Below are positions 23,972-37,729 of a stretch of DNA of 64,000 nt, piece by piece. Under the pieces are notes generated by a model. It was not told where the DNA came from. It ran no database searches and saw only the letters and a program-made list of their open reading frames with translations. Within the stretch, counting starts at the first letter, position 1, and the number at the start of each line of letters is the position of its first letter. The position numbers were made by a program, and so were the translations under genes. Origin of the DNA: Frisingicoccus sp. (GTDB lineage Bacteria > Bacillota > Clostridia > Lachnospirales > Lachnospiraceae); NCBI RefSeq assembly GCF_047030795.1, contig NZ_JBKYIC010000001.1. One strand, written 5' to 3'.

Positions 23972-24415
23972 TCATTTCCAATGTTTCAATTGTGAAAGAT
24001 AGGAATCAAATTGACTACGCCGCTCTTCATCTTTCAAATTTTCAGGATTAGGCATATTACCAACAAGATAATCGAGTAAACCTTCTTTTGATTTATATGC
24101 AAATTCACCTTCTTCATAACACCATTTACAATAATCCTCATTATAACTGCCATCCTTCTCTCGACTGATTATGCTATCTTCGTTTAAAGGCATCCCACAG
24201 CATTGGCAAATAAGCTGCCGTGGAGAACCAAGAAGCGTATTAATTGACACATTAAATTCCCTCGACAGCAATTTTAATGTTTCAGTATTTGGCTGTGTCT
24301 CTCCATTTTCCCAACGACTAATGGCCTGTCTGGTAACCATCAAACGCTCTGCCATTTGTTCCTGTGTAAGATTATTATTTTCACGCAACTTTTTAAGCAT
24401 CTCTTGCATCTCCAT
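23972..24415 (-). CDS. XRE-family HTH transcriptional regulator with C-terminal zinc-ribbon domain
   Basis: HTH_3 motif (LTQEQMAERLMVTRQAISRWENG) plus a CxxC...C..C C-terminal module, preceded by an RBS (GGAGG). Confidence 0.75.
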   Translation of the reverse strand: MEMQEMLKKLRENNNLTQEQMAERLMVTRQAISRWENGETQPNTETLKLLSREFNVSINTLLGSPRQLICQCCGMPLNEDSIISREKDGSYNEDYCKWCYEEGEFAYKSKEGLLDYLVGNMPNPENLKDEERRSQFDSYLSQLKHWK

Positions 24416-27042: not shown

Positions 27043-28284
27043 TTAAGCATTTTTCATTGCTTTCAAAATCGTACTGATTTTCGGTGTCGTGCCGTAAAGC
27101 AGAACACCAACCCGGTAAATTTTTGCTGAAAGAACACCAATTCCAAAAACGGAAACAATTAAAATAACGATCGAGATGATGATTTCATATACAGGTACCG
27201 TACTCATGGCTATTCGGGTAAACATAGCGATTGGTGATGTAAATGGGATAAATGAACAAACCTTCATTGCTACATTTTCCACAGTTCCGCTGGACATGGA
27301 AATAACCACAATGACAAAGGCGGCAATAAATAAAAATGTCAGCGGCATGACCGATGTGTTAATATCTTCGACTTTGGACGCTGTTGAACCGATAGCTCCA
27401 TACAAAAAGGCATAGATAAAAAATCCCAGGACAAAGAAAATCAACATATAGCCTAAAAGATGGAGGGGCACATTAAATATGGACTTGATCATATAATTAT
27501 CGCCCCAATAGTCCGCATTCATATTATAGAACAGTGCGGAAGCGCCGAAAACCAGAACCAACTGGGTCAGACCGGCCAGACCCGAACCAATGACCTTTCC
27601 AAACATCATGCTTGAAGGTTTCGCGCTGGTAATGAGCACTTCCATCGCTCTGGAACTCTTTTCTGTCGCTACGTTGGTCGCCACCATCTGACCATAAAGC
27701 AAAATAACCATATATAATGCAAAAATCATAATATACGTATAAAAGAAATTCTGCATCTGGTCTTTTCCAAGGCTTTCAACATCGTGTTCTATCTGTACAG
27801 ATAAAATATTTCCCGCCTCCTGAGGTGGGATTCCTCCATCAATCATTGCGTTCATACGATAAACATTCTGAAGGATTTCATCGGCAATGGATGTATTGGC
27901 ATCGTACATTGAAAGGTTGTTCACATAGTAAGTATAAGACACATCTCCAGTAATGATAAAGGCGCACTCGGCTTCACCGGACAATATCTGTTGCTTAATC
28001 GCCTCTGCACCTTCGGTTGTTGCTTTCACATCGTAATCTTCAAAGGCAGCGCCAAAAACCTGTCCTATGATTTCTATTTTCTCCGAATCTTCTGCAGACA
28101 CAAGCATCACGGCACGTTCTCCCGGTTCCGGAGATTCAGACTCATGTTTAAAAAGACCGGACACCCGGGGAAAAAACATTACAGCGCCAATCGCCAGTAC
28201 AAGAAAAATGGTAATACCTGCAAAAATCTTATTTTTAAAATAATGTTGCAGTTCAAACTTCAGTATGATCAAAAATTGTTTCAT
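27043..28284 (-). CDS. ABC-2 family transporter permease (NatB-like)
   Basis: 413 aa with an N-terminal TM helix, a large extracytoplasmic loop and a C-terminal cluster of five TM helices. Confidence 0.75.
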   Translation of the reverse strand: MKQFLIILKFELQHYFKNKIFAGITIFLVLAIGAVMFFPRVSGLFKHESESPEPGERAVMLVSAEDSEKIEIIGQVFGAAFEDYDVKATTEGAEAIKQQILSGEAECAFIITGDVSYTYYVNNLSMYDANTSIADEILQNVYRMNAMIDGGIPPQEAGNILSVQIEHDVESLGKDQMQNFFYTYIMIFALYMVILLYGQMVATNVATEKSSRAMEVLITSAKPSSMMFGKVIGSGLAGLTQLVLVFGASALFYNMNADYWGDNYMIKSIFNVPLHLLGYMLIFFVLGFFIYAFLYGAIGSTASKVEDINTSVMPLTFLFIAAFVIVVISMSSGTVENVAMKVCSFIPFTSPIAMFTRIAMSTVPVYEIIISIVILIVSVFGIGVLSAKIYRVGVLLYGTTPKISTILKAMKNA

Positions 28285-28302
28285 AATTCTATCCTTTCTC
28301 CC

Positions 28303-29190
28303 CTATTTTCCTGCATACTCGACAAAAATATCACTCAAAGAAGGCTCATATACACGGATTTCGTCAACATCATAATTTTCAATAAGCTGACGCATCACCG
28401 GCCGCTTTTCTTCCGGAGATTTTAATCGTATAATAAGTTCCTCCCTGTCATTCTCCACACAGCAGTCTGCAAAATCCTTTTTAATTACCGCATTTTTATC
28501 CGAGCGTACCACCAGGCTGTCCCGTGCATGACTTCTTTTTATTTCATTTAGATTTCCCTGTAAAACAATCTCTCCATTATTCAAAATAGCGATATGGTCA
28601 CAAAACTCTTCAATATAGTTCATCTGATGACTGGAAAATAATACGATCTTCCCTTTGGCGATTTCTTCTTTGACCACATCCTTCAAAAGCATGGCGTTGA
28701 CCGGATCCAGCCCTGAAAAAGGCTCATCCAAAATGACAATCTGTGGATCATGAACCAATGCCGTGATGAGCTGGATTTTCTGCTGATTTCCCTTGGAGAG
28801 CGTGTCCAGCCGCTTATTTCTGTACTCTGCCATTCCAAGATGCTCCAGCCAGTAATCCACAGCCCGCACCGCCTCTTTTTTACTCAGGCCTTTTAACTGG
28901 GCAAAATAAATCAGCTGGTCGATGATTTTCTTCTTCGGATACAGGCCCCTCTCCTCCGGAAGATAGCCGATCTGCACCTTTTCATAATTAATCGGCTGAC
29001 CATCAAGTAAAATTTCTCCGCCATCCGCCGGAAATACATTCATCAATATACGGATTGTCGTCGTTTTTCCGGCGCCATTACGACCAAGCAGGCCAAAGGC
29101 CTTGCCTCCAACGGCCCGAAAAGAAATTCCCTTTAAAACCTTCTTTTCACCAAAATTTTTTTTGATTTCCTGTATAACCAGTTCCATCAT
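28303..29190 (-). CDS. ABC transporter ATP-binding protein (NatA-like)
   Basis: 295 aa with Walker A GRNGAGKTT, signature LSKGNQQK and Walker B ILDEPFSGLD. Confidence 0.9.
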   Translation of the reverse strand: MMELVIQEIKKNFGEKKVLKGISFRAVGGKAFGLLGRNGAGKTTTIRILMNVFPADGGEILLDGQPINYEKVQIGYLPEERGLYPKKKIIDQLIYFAQLKGLSKKEAVRAVDYWLEHLGMAEYRNKRLDTLSKGNQQKIQLITALVHDPQIVILDEPFSGLDPVNAMLLKDVVKEEIAKGKIVLFSSHQMNYIEEFCDHIAILNNGEIVLQGNLNEIKRSHARDSLVVRSDKNAVIKKDFADCCVENDREELIIRLKSPEEKRPVMRQLIENYDVDEIRVYEPSLSDIFVEYAGK

Positions 29191-29293
29191 TTTCTCCTTT
29201 AACAGACTATATTTTTCATTTTTACGATAGCACGATTGGATGGAGATAACAACTTAATTTTTTCTTACTATAAAACCAGCCGCACTAATTATA

Positions 29294-29325
29294 AATAGCC
29301 CCTTGTCAATTAACAAGAGGCTATT
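29294..29325 (-). terminator. Hairpin downstream of the TIR-domain gene (putative terminator of the SPFH-TIR unit)
   Basis: AATAGCCTCTTGTTAATTGACAAGGGGCTATT followed by TATAATT on the minus strand, which gives only a moderate U-run. Confidence 0.4.
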
Positions 29326-29334
29326 CGCTGCTTC

Positions 29335-31407
29335 CTAATCCGTATTTTTTAACTGAAAACTTGTCACATAATTATCATCTATAAGCTTAAGTACATATTC
29401 AACTGTTACTGCACTATAATATATTTTAAGTATGTATTCCCCTTCTTCTGAGATAACAACTTCATACTCATATTCAGTCGTAACCATATTCTTTGTGTAA
29501 TTTACTTTATTATCACTCAGAAACTCCCATTTTTCATTGTACCTCTCTCCATTTTCAGCAACACCTGTTCTTGAAAAAGGAGCCAATTGCAAATTACTCT
29601 CAATTTCAGTTATACGTTTTTCATTTTCAAGTTCAATACTTTCTGCAATTTCTTTTTGTTTCTTTTCAATATTACGGCACACAGTAATTAAACCAATAAT
29701 AATTGGGATAAGAACAATCACAGTAATAAAAAATTTTCTTGTCTCTTTACGTTCCGCACATTTAATATCTTTTTCAAGATTCTCTAATTGACTCGATGCA
29801 TCTTTAAAATCTGGTATGGTTTGAAGCAATTTTAAAGCTTCTTTCAAGGTTTCGGCCTTTCCTATTTTAATTTTTTCTTGTGCCTGATTGTATCTTTCCT
29901 CTTTAAGTTTCTTCAATAATTCGGCTGAACCTGTAAAATCTGGTATGGTTTCAAGCAATTTCATGGCCTCACTAATAGCTTTCGGTGTTCCTATTTTAAT
30001 TTTTTCTTCTGCTTTATCATATACTATTTGCTCAGCTTTTTTTTCGCATTCTAATTTATAGTCGTCAGCTTTTTTATATCCTTTCACTCTGGAAAACAAC
30101 TCTGCCGCTTTGAGATAGGATTCCTTATCTGTGGCCAGACGCTGTGCCTTCAAGGCGTGTTGAAATATATTTTCATTCCGGTATTCGACTAAGGTCTTCC
30201 GATAATCCCCTCTGGCAAAAAGCAACGCTTTTTTAAAATATCTATTGTCGCCCAACATAATCCCATAAAACTTACCCCCATATTCAGGAATCTGTGATGT
30301 TCTGGACATTCTCTGTGAAGCCATCAGCTTTCCTATATAGGCCTGCGCATTTTTAGGTTCCATATCCAGTACTCGCTCACAATACTCATCGGCTTTCTGC
30401 CACTCGCCATCCTTTAAAAACATCCAAACTCTTTCCAAAAGTGGAGAAACATTGTCCGTGACCACTGTTGTTGCCACTGTTTCTTTTACCACCTCTTGCA
30501 CCGGTTCCTTTTTATCAACAAGAATCTTTTTTATTCCTCGAACCATATCCTGCATAGAGCCCAACTTTGACATGTCTTGGGCCTGCAGGTAAGCGAAACT
30601 TTCCGGCAAATCATACGGATCCATATCAATATACGCTGGCACAAGCGTCTTATCTGCGCCATTCTGAATTAAGGAAAGATAACGATTCCATTCATTTTTT
30701 ACCCATACCGAATCAAAATTCTCGGCGCTGCTTCCTAAAACTACCATCACTCTGGCACTGTTTAAGGCTGCAAAGATATAAGGTTCATAGGCTGTCCCTA
30801 GCTTGTCTTCCAAAGTAACCCTTGAGAAAAAAACTCTAAATCCCTCTTCTGTCAATTCTTCATATAAATCATAGGCCAAAACGGAATCTTTCGTTCGATT
30901 TCCAAGATTATCTGTTTCTTTATAACAAATGAATACATCATAATCTTCTTCATTTTTAGAAATATTCAAAATTTCTTTTTGTATCTCATCAATACTTTTT
31001 GCTTCCGATTCATAAATTATCCGCTGACGCTCATCAGCATACTCAATAGCAGACTGATAATCGGTATCTTTAAAAATAGACTGGCTCTGAGTTCGATGAA
31101 TCGTCGGAATTCTGCGCTGTGTTTCCGGGTCTTCCACATACTCGACACCGTATCTGCATAACACCAGAGACCAATATGCTTCCGCATCTGTTTTGTCTTC
31201 ACTCAATATCTGTTCATAAACGCCGGCAGCTTTATCAAAATCGTTATGCCTGCGATAATGATTTGCACGGTCGTACATGTTTGCACGCCGTTCATCGTCC
31301 AGTTTTGGCAATGTCTGCTTTGTACCGCAGTATTCACACACAACCACCGATTCTCCCTCTTTAATTTCCAAACCGCCACCGCACATCTTACATTTAAAAA
31401 TCGTCAT
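29335..31407 (-). CDS. TIR-domain protein: N-terminal zinc ribbon, helical region, TIR domain, 2x 43-aa repeats, single TM helix, C-terminal extracytoplasmic beta-rich domain
   Basis: The start was set at the ATG with a strong RBS (TAGGAGG-N9-ATGACGATT...), 14 nt after the upstream gene stop. It has a zinc ribbon (C-x2-C-x14-C-x2-C) and TIR box 1 (YDVFICYKETD). The alphaC motif SVWVKNEW matches S-x-W-C-x-x-E, with Glu in the NADase position. The TM segment is FFITVIVLIPIIIGLITV. The gene ends with TAG. Confidence 0.75.
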   Translation of the reverse strand: MTIFKCKMCGGGLEIKEGESVVVCEYCGTKQTLPKLDDERRANMYDRANHYRRHNDFDKAAGVYEQILSEDKTDAEAYWSLVLCRYGVEYVEDPETQRRIPTIHRTQSQSIFKDTDYQSAIEYADERQRIIYESEAKSIDEIQKEILNISKNEEDYDVFICYKETDNLGNRTKDSVLAYDLYEELTEEGFRVFFSRVTLEDKLGTAYEPYIFAALNSARVMVVLGSSAENFDSVWVKNEWNRYLSLIQNGADKTLVPAYIDMDPYDLPESFAYLQAQDMSKLGSMQDMVRGIKKILVDKKEPVQEVVKETVATTVVTDNVSPLLERVWMFLKDGEWQKADEYCERVLDMEPKNAQAYIGKLMASQRMSRTSQIPEYGGKFYGIMLGDNRYFKKALLFARGDYRKTLVEYRNENIFQHALKAQRLATDKESYLKAAELFSRVKGYKKADDYKLECEKKAEQIVYDKAEEKIKIGTPKAISEAMKLLETIPDFTGSAELLKKLKEERYNQAQEKIKIGKAETLKEALKLLQTIPDFKDASSQLENLEKDIKCAERKETRKFFITVIVLIPIIIGLITVCRNIEKKQKEIAESIELENEKRITEIESNLQLAPFSRTGVAENGERYNEKWEFLSDNKVNYTKNMVTTEYEYEVVISEEGEYILKIYYSAVTVEYVLKLIDDNYVTSFQLKNTD
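29770..30030 (-). repeat. Tandem direct repeat (about 129 nt x2) inside the TIR gene, encoding two 43-aa EKIKIG...LK(E)ALKLL(E/Q)TIPDF repeats
   Basis: A near-identical DNA stretch (aaaatctggtatggttt[g/c]aagcaattt ... cctattttaattttttcttc) is seen twice, back to back. Confidence 0.7.
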
Positions 31408-31421
31408 AGCACACTTGCCTC

Positions 31422-32579
31422 CTAAAGTTTTGTACCACATTCCAGGCAGAATTTTCCACCAACAGGCACATCTGCCCCGCAATTTGCACATTTTCTAGGC
31501 ATTGCCGCGCCGCATTCCATACAGAATTTTGCATTAGACGGTAATACCGCACCGCAATTTGCACATTGAATCGTATCTTTTTTCGTTGATTGAATCGCAG
31601 AACTTAATGCATCTCCCACTACGTTCCCGACAGTACTTCCGACTGCACTACCAATGCCCGCCATAGTTCCAAACCCTATCCCCATATTCGTATACTGACC
31701 TACAGATTCATTTTGCGCTGCTTTCTCTGCAACATCAAACCCTCTTTCCTGCTGATAGCTATATCCTTCCTGAGCTCTTTTCACAGCCATCGCCTGTGAA
31801 GCAATCGTTGTTTTTTGGGCCTCTGTTTGGGCATTAATCACATCAACTTGCTGTTTCAGTTTTGCCTCTGCAATATCTGCGTACTGACGAAAATGAAGCT
31901 CTTTAAATCGCTCATACTGTCTATCACCATCCGGCTTTGCAATATTTGTGACAAAAAACTGTTCCAGTGCAATTCCATAGTCATCAAAATCTGCATCCAA
32001 CATGGCTTTAATCTGGCTTGAAAACATTGTAAGATTTTCATCAATTTCAAAAATACTTATAGCATTTGTTTTCATAACCTGGGCAATATAAGTTTTTACC
32101 CGAGTCATCAAAAATGCTCTAAAAAAATTTTTTACTTTTTCCTGGTCTAATATTTCTTCGGTTCCGACCATTTTCATAAGTAGTTTACTAGAGTCTTCGA
32201 CTCTTAAGTTCATTTCCCCACTGGCCCCAATAGAAATCGGAAAGCCATAGGTTGGTTCCAGATACTGAACCTTGCTGTCTGTCCCCCACTTCATCGGCAT
32301 ATGTACAGATTTATTAACAAAATAAACCTCACAATGAAATGGTGACTGGCTGCCAAAGGGCAAATTTAACACCTTCCCTAATATCGGTATGTTTTCTGTT
32401 TCCAAAGTATAACGTCCGGCCTGAAATGTGTCCAAAGCCTGTCCATCTTTAAAAAATACTGCCTCCTGAGAATCATGTACAATCAACTGAGTCATATAAT
32501 TAAAATCTTCCGAAGGATGCTTCCATACGAATGTACTGTTATCTCCTTCGTATTTAATAATATCTGCTATTTTTACCAT
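31422..32579 (-). CDS. SPFH/band-7 domain protein with C-terminal double zinc ribbon (COG4260-like, 'putative virion core protein' family)
   Basis: 385 aa with an N-terminal SPFH-like domain, a coiled-coil, a Gly-rich segment (MGIGFGTMAGIGSAVG...) and two CxxC-x11-CxxC ribbons. A GGAGG RBS precedes it. It lies 14 nt upstream of the TIR gene. Confidence 0.6.
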   Translation of the reverse strand: MVKIADIIKYEGDNSTFVWKHPSEDFNYMTQLIVHDSQEAVFFKDGQALDTFQAGRYTLETENIPILGKVLNLPFGSQSPFHCEVYFVNKSVHMPMKWGTDSKVQYLEPTYGFPISIGASGEMNLRVEDSSKLLMKMVGTEEILDQEKVKNFFRAFLMTRVKTYIAQVMKTNAISIFEIDENLTMFSSQIKAMLDADFDDYGIALEQFFVTNIAKPDGDRQYERFKELHFRQYADIAEAKLKQQVDVINAQTEAQKTTIASQAMAVKRAQEGYSYQQERGFDVAEKAAQNESVGQYTNMGIGFGTMAGIGSAVGSTVGNVVGDALSSAIQSTKKDTIQCANCGAVLPSNAKFCMECGAAMPRKCANCGADVPVGGKFCLECGTKL

Positions 32580-32608
32580 TCTATTTTCCTCCGATAATCA
32601 AAAGCAAA

Positions 32609-32633
32609 GGCGGTCTATTGTCGCAAGACCGCC
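32609..32633 (-). terminator. Rho-independent terminator after the EF-G paralog, immediately upstream of the SPFH RBS
   Basis: GGCGGTCTTGCGACAATAGACCGCC followed by TTTGCTTTTGATT on the minus strand. Confidence 0.6.
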
Positions 32634-32663
32634 CATGTTTAAAAAATTGGATTCTCTATTCAA

Positions 32664-34748
32664 TTACTGTTCTACTTTCGCATTATCCGCAATAACTTTC
32701 TCCTGAACATCACTCGGAGCCTGTTCATATCTGCTGAAGGAGTATGCATAGCTTCCCCGTCCACCAGTCATGGAACGAAGGTTTGTAGAATATCCATAAA
32801 GTTCAGATAACGGAATATCTGCAACGATTTCTGTCTTTCCGCCTTCAGTTGGATTCATACCAAGTACACGGCCGCGTTTCTTATTCAAGTCGCCCATGAT
32901 ATCGCCGGTATAGCTGTCCGGAACGATAACACTTAAGGAAACGATCGGCTCAAGGATAACAGGATTTGCCTGCATAAATGCGCTCTTGAACGCCTGACGT
33001 GCTGCGGTCTTAAATGCCATTTCAGAGGAGTCTACCGGATGGTAGGAACCATCGAACAATGTGGCTTTTACGCCGACAACCGGATATCCGGCCATAGGTC
33101 CTTTAAGAACGGAATCCTGAATACCTTTTTCAACAGCCGGGAAGTAGTTCTTTGGTACGGCACCGCCGACAACCCGCTCTGCAAATACATATGGTGTTTC
33201 CAGATCGCCGGATGGCTCAAATTCCATAGCAACATCACCGTACTGACCATGTCCGCCGGACTGTTTTTTATATTTTTCACGTACGGAAACTTTCTTACGA
33301 ATCGTTTCACGATACGGAACTCTCGGTTTGGAAAGGTTGATCTTAACTTTATATTTTGCTTCCAGCTTGCTTACAACAACGTCCAGATGCTGGTCGCCCA
33401 TGCCATAAAGGAGAGACTGACGGTTTTCTTTGTCATTGAAAGCTCTCAGCGTCAGATCTTCTTCCATCATCTTCTGAAGGGCCTGGGAAACTTTATCTTC
33501 ATCACCCTTATTCTCAGCTTCATAACGCATATATGTATATGGAGATTCCACTTCAAATTTCTCAAATACCAACGGATCAGCCTTTAAGGATAATGTATCA
33601 CCGGTAGCCGTATTGGATAATTTAGCAATAGCGCCAATGTCACCAGCTTTTAATTCCGGCATTTCGATAGCTTCCTTACCTCTTAAAATGTAAATCCTGG
33701 AAAGCTTTTCTTCTGTCTCTTTTTCATAATTGTAGATAACAGAATCGGATTTCAATTCACCGGAGCAAACCTTAATTAAGGAATAACGGCCGATGAACGG
33801 GTCAACGATGGTCTTAAATACATAAGCGGAGAACGGACGACGGGAGTCATAATCCACGTTATATTCTTTATCTGTCCGAGGGTCTTTACCAAAAATCTTA
33901 ATATTATCACGGATTGGTGAAGGAAGGAATTCCACACATGTTTCGATCAAACCTTCGATACCATAAGCCAGTGTACCGGAACCGCACTGTACCGGAACAA
34001 CAGAACCTTCATTAACATTCACACGAAGGGCATCGATAATCTCGTCTACAGTAAATTCGTCGCCATCAAAATAGCGTTCCATATATTCTTCACTTGTTTC
34101 AGCAACTGCTTCCATCAATGCTTCACGGCATGGTTCAAGATCATCCTGTACATCATCCGGAACATCTCTCTCTTCCCATTTGCCGCCGCCGGTAAAACGA
34201 CGTCCTTTTAAGGTAACCACATTGACAACACCGGTAAATGTATGGTCTTCACGAATTGGCAGATGGAATGGTGCAATGCGCTTACCATAGAGTTCACGGA
34301 GCTGCTCAACAACCTTCATGTAATCTGCATGTTCATCATCCATGTTTGTTACAAAGAAAACTCTTGGAATATCATATTTTTCACAGTAAGCCCATGCTTT
34401 CTCCGTACCGGCTTCCACACCGGCCTTACCATTGATCACGATGATCGCGCCGTCAGCTGCTGCCAAAGCTTCATCTACTTCTCCGGCAAAATCCAAATAT
34501 CCCGGTGTATCTAAAAGGTTAATCTTCCAGAACTTCCATTCAATCGGTACAACAGATGTGCTGATTGAGAATTTACGACGGATTTCTTCTTTATCATAAT
34601 CGCTGATGGTATTTCCATCCTCAATGCGTCCCTGACGTGTTGTAACTCCTGTGACATGCGCCATTGCTTCTACAAGTGATGTTTTTCCGCAGCCGCCGTG
34701 GCCTAAAATTGCAACGTTACGTATGTCCTGTGTTTTATAAACCTTCAT
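32664..34748 (-). CDS. Elongation factor G family GTPase (EF-G paralog)
   Basis: 694 aa. It has the G domain (GHGGCGKTS, DTPG, NMDD) and EF-G domains II-V. It is too long for a Tet(M)/Tet(O)-type ribosomal protection protein, and its P-loop is atypical. Confidence 0.75.
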   Translation of the reverse strand: MKVYKTQDIRNVAILGHGGCGKTSLVEAMAHVTGVTTRQGRIEDGNTISDYDKEEIRRKFSISTSVVPIEWKFWKINLLDTPGYLDFAGEVDEALAAADGAIIVINGKAGVEAGTEKAWAYCEKYDIPRVFFVTNMDDEHADYMKVVEQLRELYGKRIAPFHLPIREDHTFTGVVNVVTLKGRRFTGGGKWEERDVPDDVQDDLEPCREALMEAVAETSEEYMERYFDGDEFTVDEIIDALRVNVNEGSVVPVQCGSGTLAYGIEGLIETCVEFLPSPIRDNIKIFGKDPRTDKEYNVDYDSRRPFSAYVFKTIVDPFIGRYSLIKVCSGELKSDSVIYNYEKETEEKLSRIYILRGKEAIEMPELKAGDIGAIAKLSNTATGDTLSLKADPLVFEKFEVESPYTYMRYEAENKGDEDKVSQALQKMMEEDLTLRAFNDKENRQSLLYGMGDQHLDVVVSKLEAKYKVKINLSKPRVPYRETIRKKVSVREKYKKQSGGHGQYGDVAMEFEPSGDLETPYVFAERVVGGAVPKNYFPAVEKGIQDSVLKGPMAGYPVVGVKATLFDGSYHPVDSSEMAFKTAARQAFKSAFMQANPVILEPIVSLSVIVPDSYTGDIMGDLNKKRGRVLGMNPTEGGKTEIVADIPLSELYGYSTNLRSMTGGRGSYAYSFSRYEQAPSDVQEKVIADNAKVEQ

Positions 34749-34934
34749 GTCCTATTCCTCCAATACGTTTTTAAGTACTATGGATATATTTTACTAAAAA
34801 ATCTGTCTATCTTCAAGAGTTTTATAGAAATTATACAACTTTTTCCTGTTTTTTCTCAATTTTCTTTTTAAAATGATACTGTAGAAAAAAAGCTTGATTT
34901 TTTTTTTTAATAATGCTATCATTAGGACTAACGA

Positions 34935-35210
34935 AAAAAGCTGTGATGGGAACGAGTAAGGATTCTTTGGTTTATACAGAAAGTTACCGGTTGATGAGAG
35001 GTGCATAAAACAGATTTCTGAATACATCCCTGAGCTGCAGGCTGAACCCGTTGGCAGTAGGCTGTGCCGGTTGCAACCGTTATATTGCCGGAGTATAATC
35101 AGTATGACTGACGTACTCTATAAGATTTGTACAGCGATGTACAGATGAATAAAGGTGGTACCACGGAAGGTTTCGCTTTCGTCCTTTACAGCGGGGACGG
35201 AAGCTTTTTT
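34935..35210 (+). ncRNA. T-box riboswitch leader (probably Tyr-specific) controlling tyrA-aroA
   Basis: Stem I GA-motif (GCTGTGATGGGAACGAGTA), a candidate specifier region (TTATACAGAAAG) containing UAC, the T-box sequence AAAGGTGGTACCACGGAAGG, then a terminator hairpin (GTCCTTTACAGCGGGGAC + TTTTTTT), all upstream of tyrA. Confidence 0.6.
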
Positions 35211-35329: not shown

Positions 35330-36433
35330 ATGAGTAAACAAACTATCGGATTTATCGGACTTGGCTTAATCGGCGGTTCCATCGCCAAGGCTCTGCGTGC
35401 AAAACACCCGGACCTAACTTTAATCGCTTATAACCGAAGCAAGGACAGCCTGATTGAAGCTATGGCCGACGGAACAATCAATCAGGCCATGGATACCATT
35501 GGCCCGGGATTTTCCGAATGTGATATTATCTTTTTGTGCGCACCGGTCAGCGTAAATATCCGCTGTCTGGAACAATTAAAACCAATCATCAAGCCGGACT
35601 GTATCCTGACCGATGTGGGCAGCGTGAAAACGACCATTCATGAAGCTGTTGCCAGACTGGGTATGACAGAACATTTTATCGGCGGACATCCGATGGCTGG
35701 TTCGGAAAAAACAAAATACAGCAGTGCCAAAGTACATCTGCTTGAAAATGCCTATTACATTTTAACCCCGGGAGAAGGAACCACTGATGAAATGATTTCT
35801 GAAATGGTCCGCATTGCAAAGGATATTAATGCGATTCCTGTGACCCTGAATTACCACGAGCATGACCGGGTCACTGCTGCTATTTCTCATCTGCCTCATA
35901 TTATCGCCTATACCCTTGTCAATCTGGTCAAAGATTCGGACAACCCGGATGGCATGATGCGGATGCTGGCCGCCGGAGGATTTAAAGACATCACCCGAAT
36001 CGCTTCCTCATCACCGGAAATGTGGCAGCAAATCTGTGCCGAAAACCAGACACAGATTCTGAATATGCTGCACCTTTACATAGACCGGATGACAGAAATC
36101 GGAGAGGCAATTCAGGATAACAACGCCGAGAAGCTCCTTGATACTTTTGCATCCGCAAAAGAATACAGAGATGATATTCCTCAGAGCCATGCAAAAAGTC
36201 TTCTTCCGCCAACCTATGAAATTTTTGTGGATTTGGTCGACGAATCCGGCGCTATCGCCACGATTGCGACGATTCTGGCAACGAACGGAATCAGCATTCG
36301 AAACATAGGCATTGTTCATAACCGGGAATTCCAAGAAGGTGTGCTCCACATTGAATTTTATGATGGAGAATCTGCTGAAAAAGCAACGGAGCTTTTAAAC
36401 CGTTTCCACTACGTCATTCATCTGCGCAAATAA
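35330..36433 (+). CDS. tyrA: Prephenate dehydrogenase with C-terminal ACT domain
   Basis: 367 aa with an NAD-binding GxGxxG (IGFIGLGLIGGS) and the PDH fold, preceded by an RBS (AGGAGG). Confidence 0.85.
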   Translation: MSKQTIGFIGLGLIGGSIAKALRAKHPDLTLIAYNRSKDSLIEAMADGTINQAMDTIGPGFSECDIIFLCAPVSVNIRCLEQLKPIIKPDCILTDVGSVKTTIHEAVARLGMTEHFIGGHPMAGSEKTKYSSAKVHLLENAYYILTPGEGTTDEMISEMVRIAKDINAIPVTLNYHEHDRVTAAISHLPHIIAYTLVNLVKDSDNPDGMMRMLAAGGFKDITRIASSSPEMWQQICAENQTQILNMLHLYIDRMTEIGEAIQDNNAEKLLDTFASAKEYRDDIPQSHAKSLLPPTYEIFVDLVDESGAIATIATILATNGISIRNIGIVHNREFQEGVLHIEFYDGESAEKATELLNRFHYVIHLRK

Positions 36434-36451
36434 TATACAGGAGATATAACT

Positions 36452-37729
36452 ATGAAAATAAAACGAGTCAATGGATTAAGGGGAACCGTATCTGTTCCCG
36501 GAGACAAATCCATTTCCCACCGCAGTATCATGCTTGGCTCTATTGCCGAAGGCACAACGGAAGTTCACAATTTTCTTCAGGGAGCAGACTGCCTCTCTTC
36601 CATCGCATGCTTTCGACAAATGGGCATTTATATTGAAAACAATGGAGATATTGTCCGCATCCATGGACAGGGACTTCATGGGTTAAAACGCCCGGAAAAC
36701 ACCCTTGACACAGGAAACAGCGGAACAACGACCCGACTCATGTCAGGTATTCTCGCCGGACAAAATTTTGATTGCATCGTCAATGGCGATGCCTCGATTC
36801 AGTCCCGCCCAATGCGTCGGATTATGACGCCCCTTTCCATGATGGGCGCCTCCATCGAAAGCATCCGGGGCAATGATTGTGCTCCGTTAAAAATCACAGG
36901 ACAGAAACTTCACGGCATTCACTACGATTCGCCGGTATCCTCTGCCCAGGTAAAATCTGCCATTCTTCTGGCAGGCCTTTATGCCGATGGAGAGACAAGT
37001 GTAACTGAACCGGTACTTTCAAGAAATCATACAGAACTGATGCTTGGCGCCTGCGGCGGTGATATTCGTTCCGAAGGAACGACAGCCACGCTTCATCCGG
37101 TCAAACGGCTGGAAGCCCAGAACATCATTGTTCCCGGCGATATTTCCTCCGCTGCCTACTTTATGGCTGCCGGTCTTATCGTTCCCGGCTCAGAAATTTA
37201 TATTGAAAATGTGGGCATCAATCCGACACGAGATGGTATGGTCAAAGTATGTCAGGCGATGGGCGGAAATATTTCTCTTGAAAACGTTCGGGATGTCTGC
37301 GGTGAGCCGGTAGCCGACATTGTTGTCCGCCATTCCTCACTGCATGGAACTATCGTCGAAGGTGATATTATTCCGACCCTTATCGATGAACTGCCGATTA
37401 TTGCTGTCATGGCTGCCTTTGCCGAAGGTCAGACCATCATCCGGGATGCTGCCGAGCTGAAGGTTAAAGAATCTGACCGTATCGCTGTCATGGCTGAAAA
37501 CCTCAGCGCCATGGGCGTGGACATCACCCCGACGGCCGACGGCATGATCATCAACGGTGGCAGCACACCTCACGGTGCCCGGATTCAAAGCCATCTGGAT
37601 CACCGAATCGCCATGTCCTTTGCTGTAGCTGCTCTGGCCAGCGATGGCGAAACAGAAATCATTGGCAGCGATTGTGTCAATATTTCCTATCCGACATTCT
37701 ACCAGGATTTATTTAATTTGGCTGAATAA
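36452..37729 (+). CDS. aroA: 3-phosphoshikimate 1-carboxyvinyltransferase (EPSP synthase)
   Basis: 425-aa EPSP synthase family (LRGTVSVPGDKSISHR...). Confidence 0.9.
   Translation: MKIKRVNGLRGTVSVPGDKSISHRSIMLGSIAEGTTEVHNFLQGADCLSSIACFRQMGIYIENNGDIVRIHGQGLHGLKRPENTLDTGNSGTTTRLMSGILAGQNFDCIVNGDASIQSRPMRRIMTPLSMMGASIESIRGNDCAPLKITGQKLHGIHYDSPVSSAQVKSAILLAGLYADGETSVTEPVLSRNHTELMLGACGGDIRSEGTTATLHPVKRLEAQNIIVPGDISSAAYFMAAGLIVPGSEIYIENVGINPTRDGMVKVCQAMGGNISLENVRDVCGEPVADIVVRHSSLHGTIVEGDIIPTLIDELPIIAVMAAFAEGQTIIRDAAELKVKESDRIAVMAENLSAMGVDITPTADGMIINGGSTPHGARIQSHLDHRIAMSFAVAALASDGETEIIGSDCVNISYPTFYQDLFNLAE

Follow-up and report, generated by a model that had tools for sequence, protein, structure and literature searches.

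The 64,000-nucleotide stretch of contig NZ_JBKYIC010000001.1 analysed here (assembly GCF_047030795.1; hereafter the window) comes from Frisingicoccus sp., a human-gut Lachnospiraceae bacterium, and carries two adjacent minus-strand genes, one for a soluble SPFH protein (S) and one for a membrane protein bearing a domain of the toll/interleukin-1 receptor (TIR) type (T). Our results suggest that this pair is a reduced, two-gene form of a cassette that is very common in gut Clostridia and that usually includes a second membrane protein, M, between S and T, rather than a natural compact unit. They show that the adjacency of S and T is far beyond chance. With moderate confidence, we propose that the pair is a reduced member of a Clostridial membrane-associated conflict cassette, probably anti-phage and of the abortive-infection type. 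The database annotation goes no further than "SPFH domain-containing protein" for S and "toll/interleukin-1 receptor domain-containing protein" for T.

Conservation of the S-T linkage and the S-M-T cassette

Relatives of T number more than 595 when one genome per species is considered, and 80 of their loci, with flanks of up to 10 kb, were analysed with hidden Markov models (HMMs) of both families. A homologue of S was found by the HMM scan in 55 of these 80 loci, always on the same strand as T and never on the opposite one, and three more T loci contain M alone ahead of the contig end. Ten loci were too short, and in 58 of the 70 determinable ones T is linked on the same strand to S and/or M, the other 12 being orphan T genes. 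The S-T linkage is seen in Lachnospiraceae, Oscillospiraceae, Acutalibacteraceae, Anaerovoracaceae and others. The conservation of the SPFH-TIR adjacency in other genomes, which an earlier note made from the sequence alone had put forward as a check of its idea of an NAD-signalling or defence module, is thus established in several families.

The all-against-all clustering of every open reading frame (ORF) in the 80 T loci recovered three recurrent gene families, T (80 loci), S (55) and M (55), and no fourth core family; the other recurrent clusters were shadow ORFs, an integrase (9 loci) and an ABC ATPase (9 loci). The flanks differ among genomes whereas the three genes keep together, so that the whole cassette moves as one. 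Across families, S is 63-71% identical and the first 365 residues of T are 66-88% identical. Viral contigs yielded two T and seven S relatives among the 2.9 million in IMG/VR, and a phage origin of the cassette was rejected on this ground. Because it is so rare on viral contigs, the cassette is cellular or mobile-element cargo and not a phage gene.

In its canonical order, the cassette consists of S, M, an optional variable cargo gene, and one to three T paralogs with hypervariable ectodomains, the order T-S-M being found as well. M lies nearly always directly after S (gap of -40 to +27 nt) and is a protein of about 232 aa, predicted to have four transmembrane (TM) helices, with a helical tail in the cytoplasm. 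It is matched neither by Pfam nor by the PADLOC-DB v2 models, used here as the test for defence systems, and appears to be an unannotated family (for example L037:8803-9504, and 60 other loci).

No homologue of M is present in the entire window, and the window copy also has no cargo gene. Its S and T are 63-84% and about 47-76% identical, respectively, to the cassette genes of other loci. The M-less form is also found in L001-L003, L088 and L177, as well as in L011 (S-49 nt-T), and L038 and L140 show the arrangement S-T-M-T. L011 belongs to the cultured strain Anaerotignum sp. MSJ-24, and the order S-M-T is found in the complete genome of Hominifimenecus sp. rT4P-3 (L083). In the L001-L003 relative, S is 84% and T 76% identical to the window proteins, and the order elongation factor G (EF-G), S, T, ABC transporter, leuS is identical. 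The window S and T stand at equal distance from every other clade; for this reason a separate "S-T without M" subfamily was rejected, and M was probably lost in the window lineage, as far as these sequence comparisons indicate. The earlier note had described the pair as a compact unit inserted among housekeeping-like genes. The pair is not the naturally compact unit, but seems to be a reduced form of a cassette usually including M; the EF-G and ABC-2 flanks are indeed as described, but the copy is not a recent insertion, since the L001-L003 relative has the same gene order although its T shares just 76% of its residues with that of the window.

The reverse search, starting from S in metagenome contigs (80 loci analysed), again recovered S-M as a nearly invariant pair. 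Where 3.5 kb or more of sequence was available downstream of S, T was found in 26 loci and was missing in 18. In these T-less loci, the product of the gene past M belongs to a different family, in which a zinc ribbon (MKQLTCEMCGSTDL...CQSCG) is followed by TPR and by variable C-terminal parts. The zinc ribbon of this alternative family is 36% identical to that of T over 33 aa; the family has no PADLOC match, and its Pfam matches cover the TPR and zinc-ribbon parts alone, mostly under the curated cut-offs. Therefore, S-M is a general platform for proteins headed by a zinc ribbon and TPR, of which T is the commonest but not the sole partner. As S-M also partners these non-TIR proteins, S is not a TIR-specific regulator, and the suggestion of the earlier note that S holds a TIR NADase in check is too specific, given that S-M also occurs without a TIR protein; we regard it as doubtful. 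Likewise, we consider it unlikely that S-M acts as the dedicated effector of a signal made by the TIR, since its partner often has a non-TIR head.

Examples of the zinc-ribbon-TPR family (MKQLTCEMCGSTDL...EGTVDV) replacing T are L096:10651-11832, L112:6987-8354 and L154:10098-11681, among others, and some of these alternative-head proteins end in a Cys-rich motif, GCYVATAVYGSYDCPxVWxLRRFRD...YYAISP.

Several features of the related loci recall conflict systems. In 32 loci, at least 240 nt separate M from T, and these slots contain 31 co-oriented ORFs belonging to 18 unrelated clusters. The cargo includes stand-alone ThsB-like TIR proteins (four; TIR_2 1.3e-20, PADLOC PDC-S66 8e-40 and ThsB 2e-23), HEPN proteins of the pEK499_p136 type (four), DUF2971 (four), DUF4365 (two), SIR2_2 (two), HTH_17 (two) and one HEPN RiboL-PSP protein together with two weak matches, the remaining slot ORFs being without known family. 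In addition, a homologue of the SIR2-STAND protein Avs5 (3e-45) is encoded close to the cassette in L143. The cassette frequently adjoins recombinases; in the T-less loci, a small serine recombinase gene is usually located directly upstream of S (Resolvase 1.4e-31), and ORFs resembling relaxases and large serine recombinases were recognised by eye nearby. A conserved core combined with swappable genes of the HEPN, TIR or SIR2 type is the described layout of bacterial conflict systems (PMC7159879), and the tandem paralogs, hypervariable surface domains and mobile-element neighbours fit this picture. Together, the related loci give indirect support for a defence or conflict role.

Three loci show inverted repeats around a segment of 100-250 bp between the recombinase gene and the start of S: L118:7354-7635 (23 nt, perfect complementarity), L048:7355-7666 (31 nt at 94%) and L128:6682-6833 (26 nt at 85%). 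The recombinase beside the repeats is of the tyrosine type in L118 and L048 and of the serine type in L128. These segments resemble an invertible promoter, and the cassette may be phase-variable in these three genomes.

Organisation of the window locus and architecture of S and T

The S gene (31422-32579, minus strand) encodes a protein of 385 aa and the T gene (29335-31407, minus strand) a single-pass membrane protein of 690 aa, both delimited from their ORFs and Pfam matches (TIR_2 and TPR in the case of T). At its longest, the T ORF begins at 31491, within S, and the ATG at 31407 gives the 690-aa protein; in the alignment, the equivalent of this Met is the start in all homologues. This ATG is 14 nt from the S stop codon, the distance reported in the earlier note. 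The spacer (31408-31421, minus strand) follows the TAG stop codon of S and reads GAGGcaagtgtgct before the ATG of T, with an AGGAGG ribosome-binding site overlapping the stop codon. Given this 14-nt distance and the overlapping AGGAGG, S and T are translationally coupled. A 15-nt spacing between the two genes is also found in L001-L003 and L038.

Two terminator-like hairpins, both on the minus strand, were found by folding. One separates S from the EF-G paralogue (32605-32637; -17.3 kcal/mol, z = -3.4) and is followed by the U-rich UUUGCUUUU; the other is located directly past the stop codon of T (29293-29326; -20.6 kcal/mol, z = -5.3), and its stability was equalled in none of 200 shuffles. 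A consensus terminator scan had passed over both, the former having a 9-nt loop, and folding confirmed both. As they bracket exactly these two genes, the hairpins delimit the S-T pair as a unit.

S is composed, in order, of a Band_7_1 domain, a coiled coil, a Gly-rich segment and a double zinc ribbon, as the earlier note had recognised for its SPFH domain and C-terminal zinc ribbons. The Band_7_1 domain (residues 24-217; 31929-32510, minus strand) matches PF13421 with 150.6 bits (cut-off 24; E 6.1e-44) over profile positions 9-197 of 211. The Gly/Ala-rich, weakly hydrophobic segment of low complexity (NMGIGFGTMAGIGSAVGSTVGNVVG; residues ~296-325, 31605-31694, minus strand) is conserved in the alignment A3 and shows a weak hydrophobic peak at residues 299-313; hydropathy indicates no TM helix in S. 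The double zinc ribbon (residues 339-382; 31434-31565, minus strand) consists of two CxxC...CxxC units with conserved Cys columns (Pfam DZR 3.7e-11, Zn_Ribbon_1 1.7e-11), of which homologues carry two or three. S is 63-84% identical to its homologues, and the relatives of both S and T exceed 8000 each in the database, nearly all in gut or rumen Clostridia.

A long SPFH variant of 605-669 aa with Band_7_1 and weak DZR Pfam matches was also observed (L004:5439-7256; L008, L022, L047, L053, L054, L081). It has no PADLOC match. The cassettes containing it frequently have a T paralog on both sides, and the surrounding elements bear DUF6550, DUF6809, DUF6076 and serine recombinase genes.

From its N- to its C-terminus, T comprises a zinc ribbon, a TPR, a beta-hairpin with helices, the TIR domain, TPR and helical repeats, a TM helix and a tail of 113 aa. 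The zinc ribbon (residues 1-32; 31312-31407, minus strand), noticed earlier from the sequence, holds C6, C9, C24 and C27, four residues that no relative lacks if its N-terminus is intact (144-145 of 149 rows, with gaps in the others), and it forms four short strands in the AlphaFold2 (AF2) model, with a predicted local distance difference test score (pLDDT) of 77-86. The first TPR unit (residues 39-85; 31153-31293, minus strand) is matched by Pfam at residues 44-80 (TPR_2 1.5e-07, TPR_14 2e-07) and is modelled as helices 39-53, 57-70 and 75-85.

The TIR domain (residues ~156-297; 30517-30942, minus strand) matches Pfam TIR_2 at residues 158-282 (1e-11, 45.8 bits, cut-off 28). Searching the PDB by sequence with the T profile gave TPR matches alone and no TIR, so that the fold was established through AF2 and Foldseek. 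The model of residues 1-365 has a mean pLDDT of 82.5, and its TIR part matches more than 30 solved TIR domains with a Foldseek probability of 1.00, among them those of plant Roq1, L7 and L6, MAL, MyD88, AbTir (TM-score on target 0.75) and SPARTA TIR-APAZ. The TIR assignment, for which the earlier note had recommended a structural check, is therefore sound. The motif SVWVKNEW, pointed out in the same note, corresponds to residues 233-240, at the beginning of helix 234-248 of the model, and contains the putative catalytic Glu, E239 (codon 30691-30693, minus strand). This residue sits four residues past the conserved W235, a spacing shared with TIR enzymes of plants and of the ThsB type, is invariant in 148 of 148 T relatives and is aligned with the equivalent Glu of a ThsB-like TIR. 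T thus carries the S-x-W-x-x-x-E motif of NAD+-cleaving TIR enzymes (S233-V-W235-V-K-N-E239), and its TIR domain is probably NAD-cleaving, to judge from these residues.

Past the TIR domain, the second TPR (residues 321-364) and the cytoplasmic helical repeats (365-555) extend over 29743-30447 (minus strand). The former is modelled as helices and has weak TPR_1 and Fis1_TPR_C matches at residues 330-356; the latter, as read from the sequence, holds a KIKIG...LL.TIPDF unit twice. As the earlier note had seen, a single hydrophobic helix follows near the C-terminus (FFITVIVLIPIIIGLITVC; residues ~558-577, 29677-29736, minus strand; Kyte-Doolittle peak 2.97), which aligns with a hydrophobic block in all homologues. 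The 113-aa tail (29338-29676, minus strand; alignment A1 and GC profile) is predicted to be extracellular and is low in GC (0.33), and homologues have large variable ectodomains at the same place, assigned by Pfam to DUF6273, RCC1_2/WD40_RLD, LRR_5 and RHS. A T relative of 569 aa stops directly past the TM helix. The nearly identical head of T (150 residues) is common to 2530 clusters at 50% identity (E<=1e-30), and the T-head proteins span 216-3073 aa among the 150 best matches listed.

An A8 homopolymer is located inside the T gene (30037-30044, minus strand; codons 455-457), and a 471-aa T variant found in seven contigs (P0262) is frameshifted exactly at this tract, either through slipped-strand phase variation, possibly, or as an artefact of sequencing. 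Some T annotations of the same species are shorter (600-658 aa); a true truncation of the N-terminus was rejected for one of them, L177, because single-base homopolymer deletions resembling assembly errors explain it.

The pair is flanked by the EF-G paralogue (32664-34748) and by genes for an ABC ATPase and an ABC-2 permease (27043-29190). Further away, a T-box leader (Rfam RF00230, 114.8 bits; 34934-35189, plus strand) is located upstream of the genes for prephenate dehydrogenase (35330-36433) and 5-enolpyruvylshikimate-3-phosphate synthase (36452-37729); this is ordinary amino-acid-responsive regulation, unconnected with the S-T pair. On the other side, a 147-aa ORF adjoining leuS (23972-24415, minus strand) has an N-terminal helix-turn-helix of the XRE type and a C-terminal half rich in Cys (CQCCG...CKWC). 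The segment 49001-50000 is a second one of low GC content (0.326, against ~0.43 for the window), similar in this to the 3' half of the T gene.

Possible function of the cassette and alternative explanations

SPFH proteins form large membrane-attached oligomers, and TIR NADases such as SARM1, plant TIRs, AbTir and SPARTA are activated by oligomerisation and use the Glu found in T. In the mechanism that we propose, S would rather likely be drawn to the membrane by the head of T, with its zinc ribbon and TPR, together with M where present, by analogy with the Bacillus subtilis protein YdjI discussed below. Once there, S might oligomerise into an SPFH-type platform governing the clustering of T, a step we advance more tentatively. 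An envelope trigger (phage adsorption or injection, or membrane damage) would alter the organisation of this platform. The TIR domains of T would then self-associate and switch on NAD+ cleavage, which we consider the likeliest of these steps, and NAD+ depletion and/or an ADP-ribose (ADPR)-type signal would arrest the infected cell. That the biological role is one of defence or conflict, with an abortive-infection-type output, we propose with moderate confidence.

Several observations weigh against this interpretation. The core components S, M and T are outside PADLOC, their conservation is unusually high for defence genes, and the studied relative of S, YdjI, acts in envelope-stress repair and not in immunity. 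S-M is found without any TIR, hence the platform can do without TIR activity. The window copy itself, with neither M nor more than a vestigial ectodomain, may work differently or be decaying; it is placed among housekeeping genes in conserved synteny with no further defence gene nearby, and a consensus scan gave no convincing sigma-70-like promoter just upstream of S. Physical contact between S and T is inferred, the AF2 prediction of S from an alignment of 27 sequences being unusable (pLDDT 47.7).

Some of these points favour, instead, an envelope-stress or membrane-maintenance module, a PspA-independent analogue of YdjGHI in which zinc-ribbon membrane proteins would recruit S as a scaffold beneath the membrane, T would be a stress sensor or adaptor and its TIR an oligomerisation or signalling module instead of a cell-killing NADase. 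The architecture of S parallels that of YdjI, as the zinc ribbons and TM helix parallel those of YdjG; the conservation of S and of the T head is high and housekeeping-like, the window copy has a stable housekeeping neighbourhood, and S-M occurs without TIR. However, no PspA, TPM or other Psp component recurs in the 80 related neighbourhoods, a mere scaffold would have no need for the invariant Glu at the catalytic position, and the distribution is patchy, with flanks varying by genome. The HEPN, SIR2 and TIR cargo, the recombinases, the tandem paralogs and the hypervariable ectodomains are, moreover, conflict traits, and we find this explanation improbable. The same cargo is difficult to account for if the T proteins are non-immune receptors or adhesins of the cell surface suited to the gut, with host glycans or other bacteria as possible targets or a part in contact-dependent competition, whose variable ectodomain binds a ligand and whose TIR signals inward while S organises microdomains. 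Such a role would agree with the Toll-like-receptor layout of ectodomain, single TM helix and cytoplasmic TIR, with the DUF6273, RCC1-like propeller, LRR_5 and RHS repeats typical of surface-binding proteins, with the one to three paralogs per locus and with the possible invertible promoters, which are common for gut-bacterial surface structures. Nevertheless, the window T and the 569-aa relative keep the full cytoplasmic module with little or no ectodomain, and no conserved downstream signalling partner was found in the 80 neighbourhoods, which leaves this second alternative with less probability than the first.

A Thoeris-like system, in which the TIR of T makes a cyclic ADPR-type messenger for a separate effector (M, S, one of the cargo proteins or the product of a gene elsewhere) instead of depleting NAD+, is slightly less probable again. 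The intact Glu of the TIR, the fusion of TPR to TIR and a weak similarity to ThcB4 (4.6e-05) speak for it, as do the many new Thoeris types with TM or unknown effectors (bioRxiv 10.64898/2025.12.03.692087). Nonetheless, the ThcB4 score of 22 lies far below the cut-off of 220, there is no PADLOC Thoeris match, and the window offers no candidate effector besides S. In addition, S-M is often found with non-TIR heads and hence is no dedicated receptor for a TIR product, and SPFH-linked systems are missing from the 2025 survey. Finally, each of these domains is also found alone in other proteins, and S and T could be chance neighbours with no functional link; but the same-strand linkage in 55 of 80 independent loci with differing flanks, the coupling over 14-15 nt in several lineages and the hairpins bracketing exactly S and T make this scarcely credible.

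An extension of the conflict-cassette interpretation takes the SPFH/4-TM pair as a general sub-membrane chassis, where proteins would dock by their common zinc-ribbon-TPR head, and the TIR proteins as outside-in immune receptors in the style of Toll-like receptors, with hypervariable ectodomains sensing phages or competitors at the surface and passing the signal through the membrane to activate a TIR NADase in an SPFH-organised microdomain. We think it unlikely to be right in this full form; if true, bacterial innate immunity would have a branch that senses at the cell surface, one that is abundant in the human gut microbiome and possibly phase-variable.

TIR domains are an immune currency common to animals, plants and bacteria and, to our knowledge, nearly all of those studied in bacteria act in cytoplasmic systems that detect an infection inside the cell. 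The cassette joins a conserved and probably enzymatic TIR to a membrane anchor, hypervariable surface domains and an SPFH scaffold; it presents known domains in an undescribed combination and looks like a TIR-based membrane-associated conflict system of gut Clostridia, organisms with barely explored phage defences. If it serves in defence, TIR immunity would gain a membrane-organised type, possibly sensing at the cell surface, and SPFH/flotillin-like proteins would gain an immune role. Should it serve in stress or as a receptor instead, it still defines a large protein family without annotation, along with partners for Band_7_1 (YdjI), a poorly understood branch of the SPFH proteins.

Comparison with known systems

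T has no PADLOC match, and S gives only an insignificant one, to PDC-S63 (E 0.0059). Neither S nor T matches an NCBIfam equivalog; the NCBIfam model of the Thoeris III protein ThcB4 gives T only 22.4 bits. In the full-text literature, nothing was found that ties SPFH/Band-7 to TIR or describes the cassette; one eLife paper retrieved with TIR domain, SPFH and zinc ribbon contains SPFH in its reference list alone. A systematic TIR survey of 2025 mentions no SPFH, band 7, flotillin or zinc (bioRxiv 10.64898/2025.12.03.692087). The pair, which the earlier note had expected to be unassigned, thus belongs to no named system in these resources. The note was aware of no described system with this pairing; the same holds for the cassette in the literature searched, whereas the scaffold half has a close precedent in YdjI/YdjG (PMC8581546, PMC11237479).

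T shares its TIR fold and the Glu at the catalytic position with bacterial TIR NADase defence proteins (ThsB, AbTir, SpbK, SPARTA TIR-APAZ), and its membrane association with the TIR-TM effectors of Pycsar and CBASS; ThsB-like TIR genes lie inside related cassettes. Unlike TIR defence systems, however, the window pair is without a cyclase, a ThsA-type effector, an Argonaute or a STAND partner, and the zinc-ribbon-TPR head of T, its C-terminal TM helix with ectodomain and its SPFH partner are not features of known ones. An assignment to Thoeris finds no PADLOC ThsB or ThsA match for T or S and no adjacent effector gene in the window. As for CBASS and Pycsar, the pair adjoins an EF-G paralogue and ABC transporter genes instead of a CD-NTase or pyrimidine cyclase gene, PADLOC gives no match, and Pfam shows no nucleotide-sensing domain on T.

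The BcTir/BcTpr operon of Bacillus cereus, an NAD+-consuming anti-phage operon, also combines TIR and TPR modules, as the S-T pair does (bioRxiv 10.1101/2023.05.26.542521). In contrast to T, its two modules sit on different proteins, both soluble, with the N-terminal glycosidase domain of BcTpr acting as NADase; no SPFH, zinc-ribbon or membrane component is described for it.

The T family, with its variable ectodomain (LRR_5 in some members), one TM helix and a cytoplasmic TIR, is similar in architecture to Toll-like receptors. Shared descent of the whole architecture is not implied: in T, the TIR is N-terminal, the ectodomain is C-terminal and the enzymatic Glu is kept, and the window T is almost without ectodomain. 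Regarding S, its genetic coupling to a membrane protein that it possibly encloses or regulates resembles the situation of HflK/HflC-FtsH, stomatin and flotillin. Unlike HflK/HflC, S lacks both a TM helix and a hairpin and is placed in the Band_7_1 branch, and its putative client is a TIR protein instead of the protease FtsH.

The closest architectural parallel of S is B. subtilis YdjI, a soluble band-7 protein with a low-complexity region before a C-terminal zinc finger (PMC8581546, PMC11237479). The membrane foci of YdjI need YdjG, which has a zinc ribbon and a TM helix, and the membrane protein YdjH, with which YdjI interacts (PMC8581546, PMC9239133, PMC11237479). S shows the same succession of soluble band-7 domain, low-complexity segment and C-terminal zinc ribbon and, as in YdjGHI, is encoded beside a membrane protein headed by a zinc ribbon, T, and mostly also a second membrane protein, M. 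In contrast to the pspA-ydjGHI operon, the cassette contains no PspA, M is a 4-TM protein without Pfam match where YdjH has a TPM domain, and T carries TPR, TIR and a variable ectodomain where YdjG has an NTF2-like domain. Therefore, being without PspA and a TPM-domain protein, the cassette is not a member of the YdjGHI system, even though the step by which the soluble band-7 protein is recruited to the membrane is plausibly alike in both.

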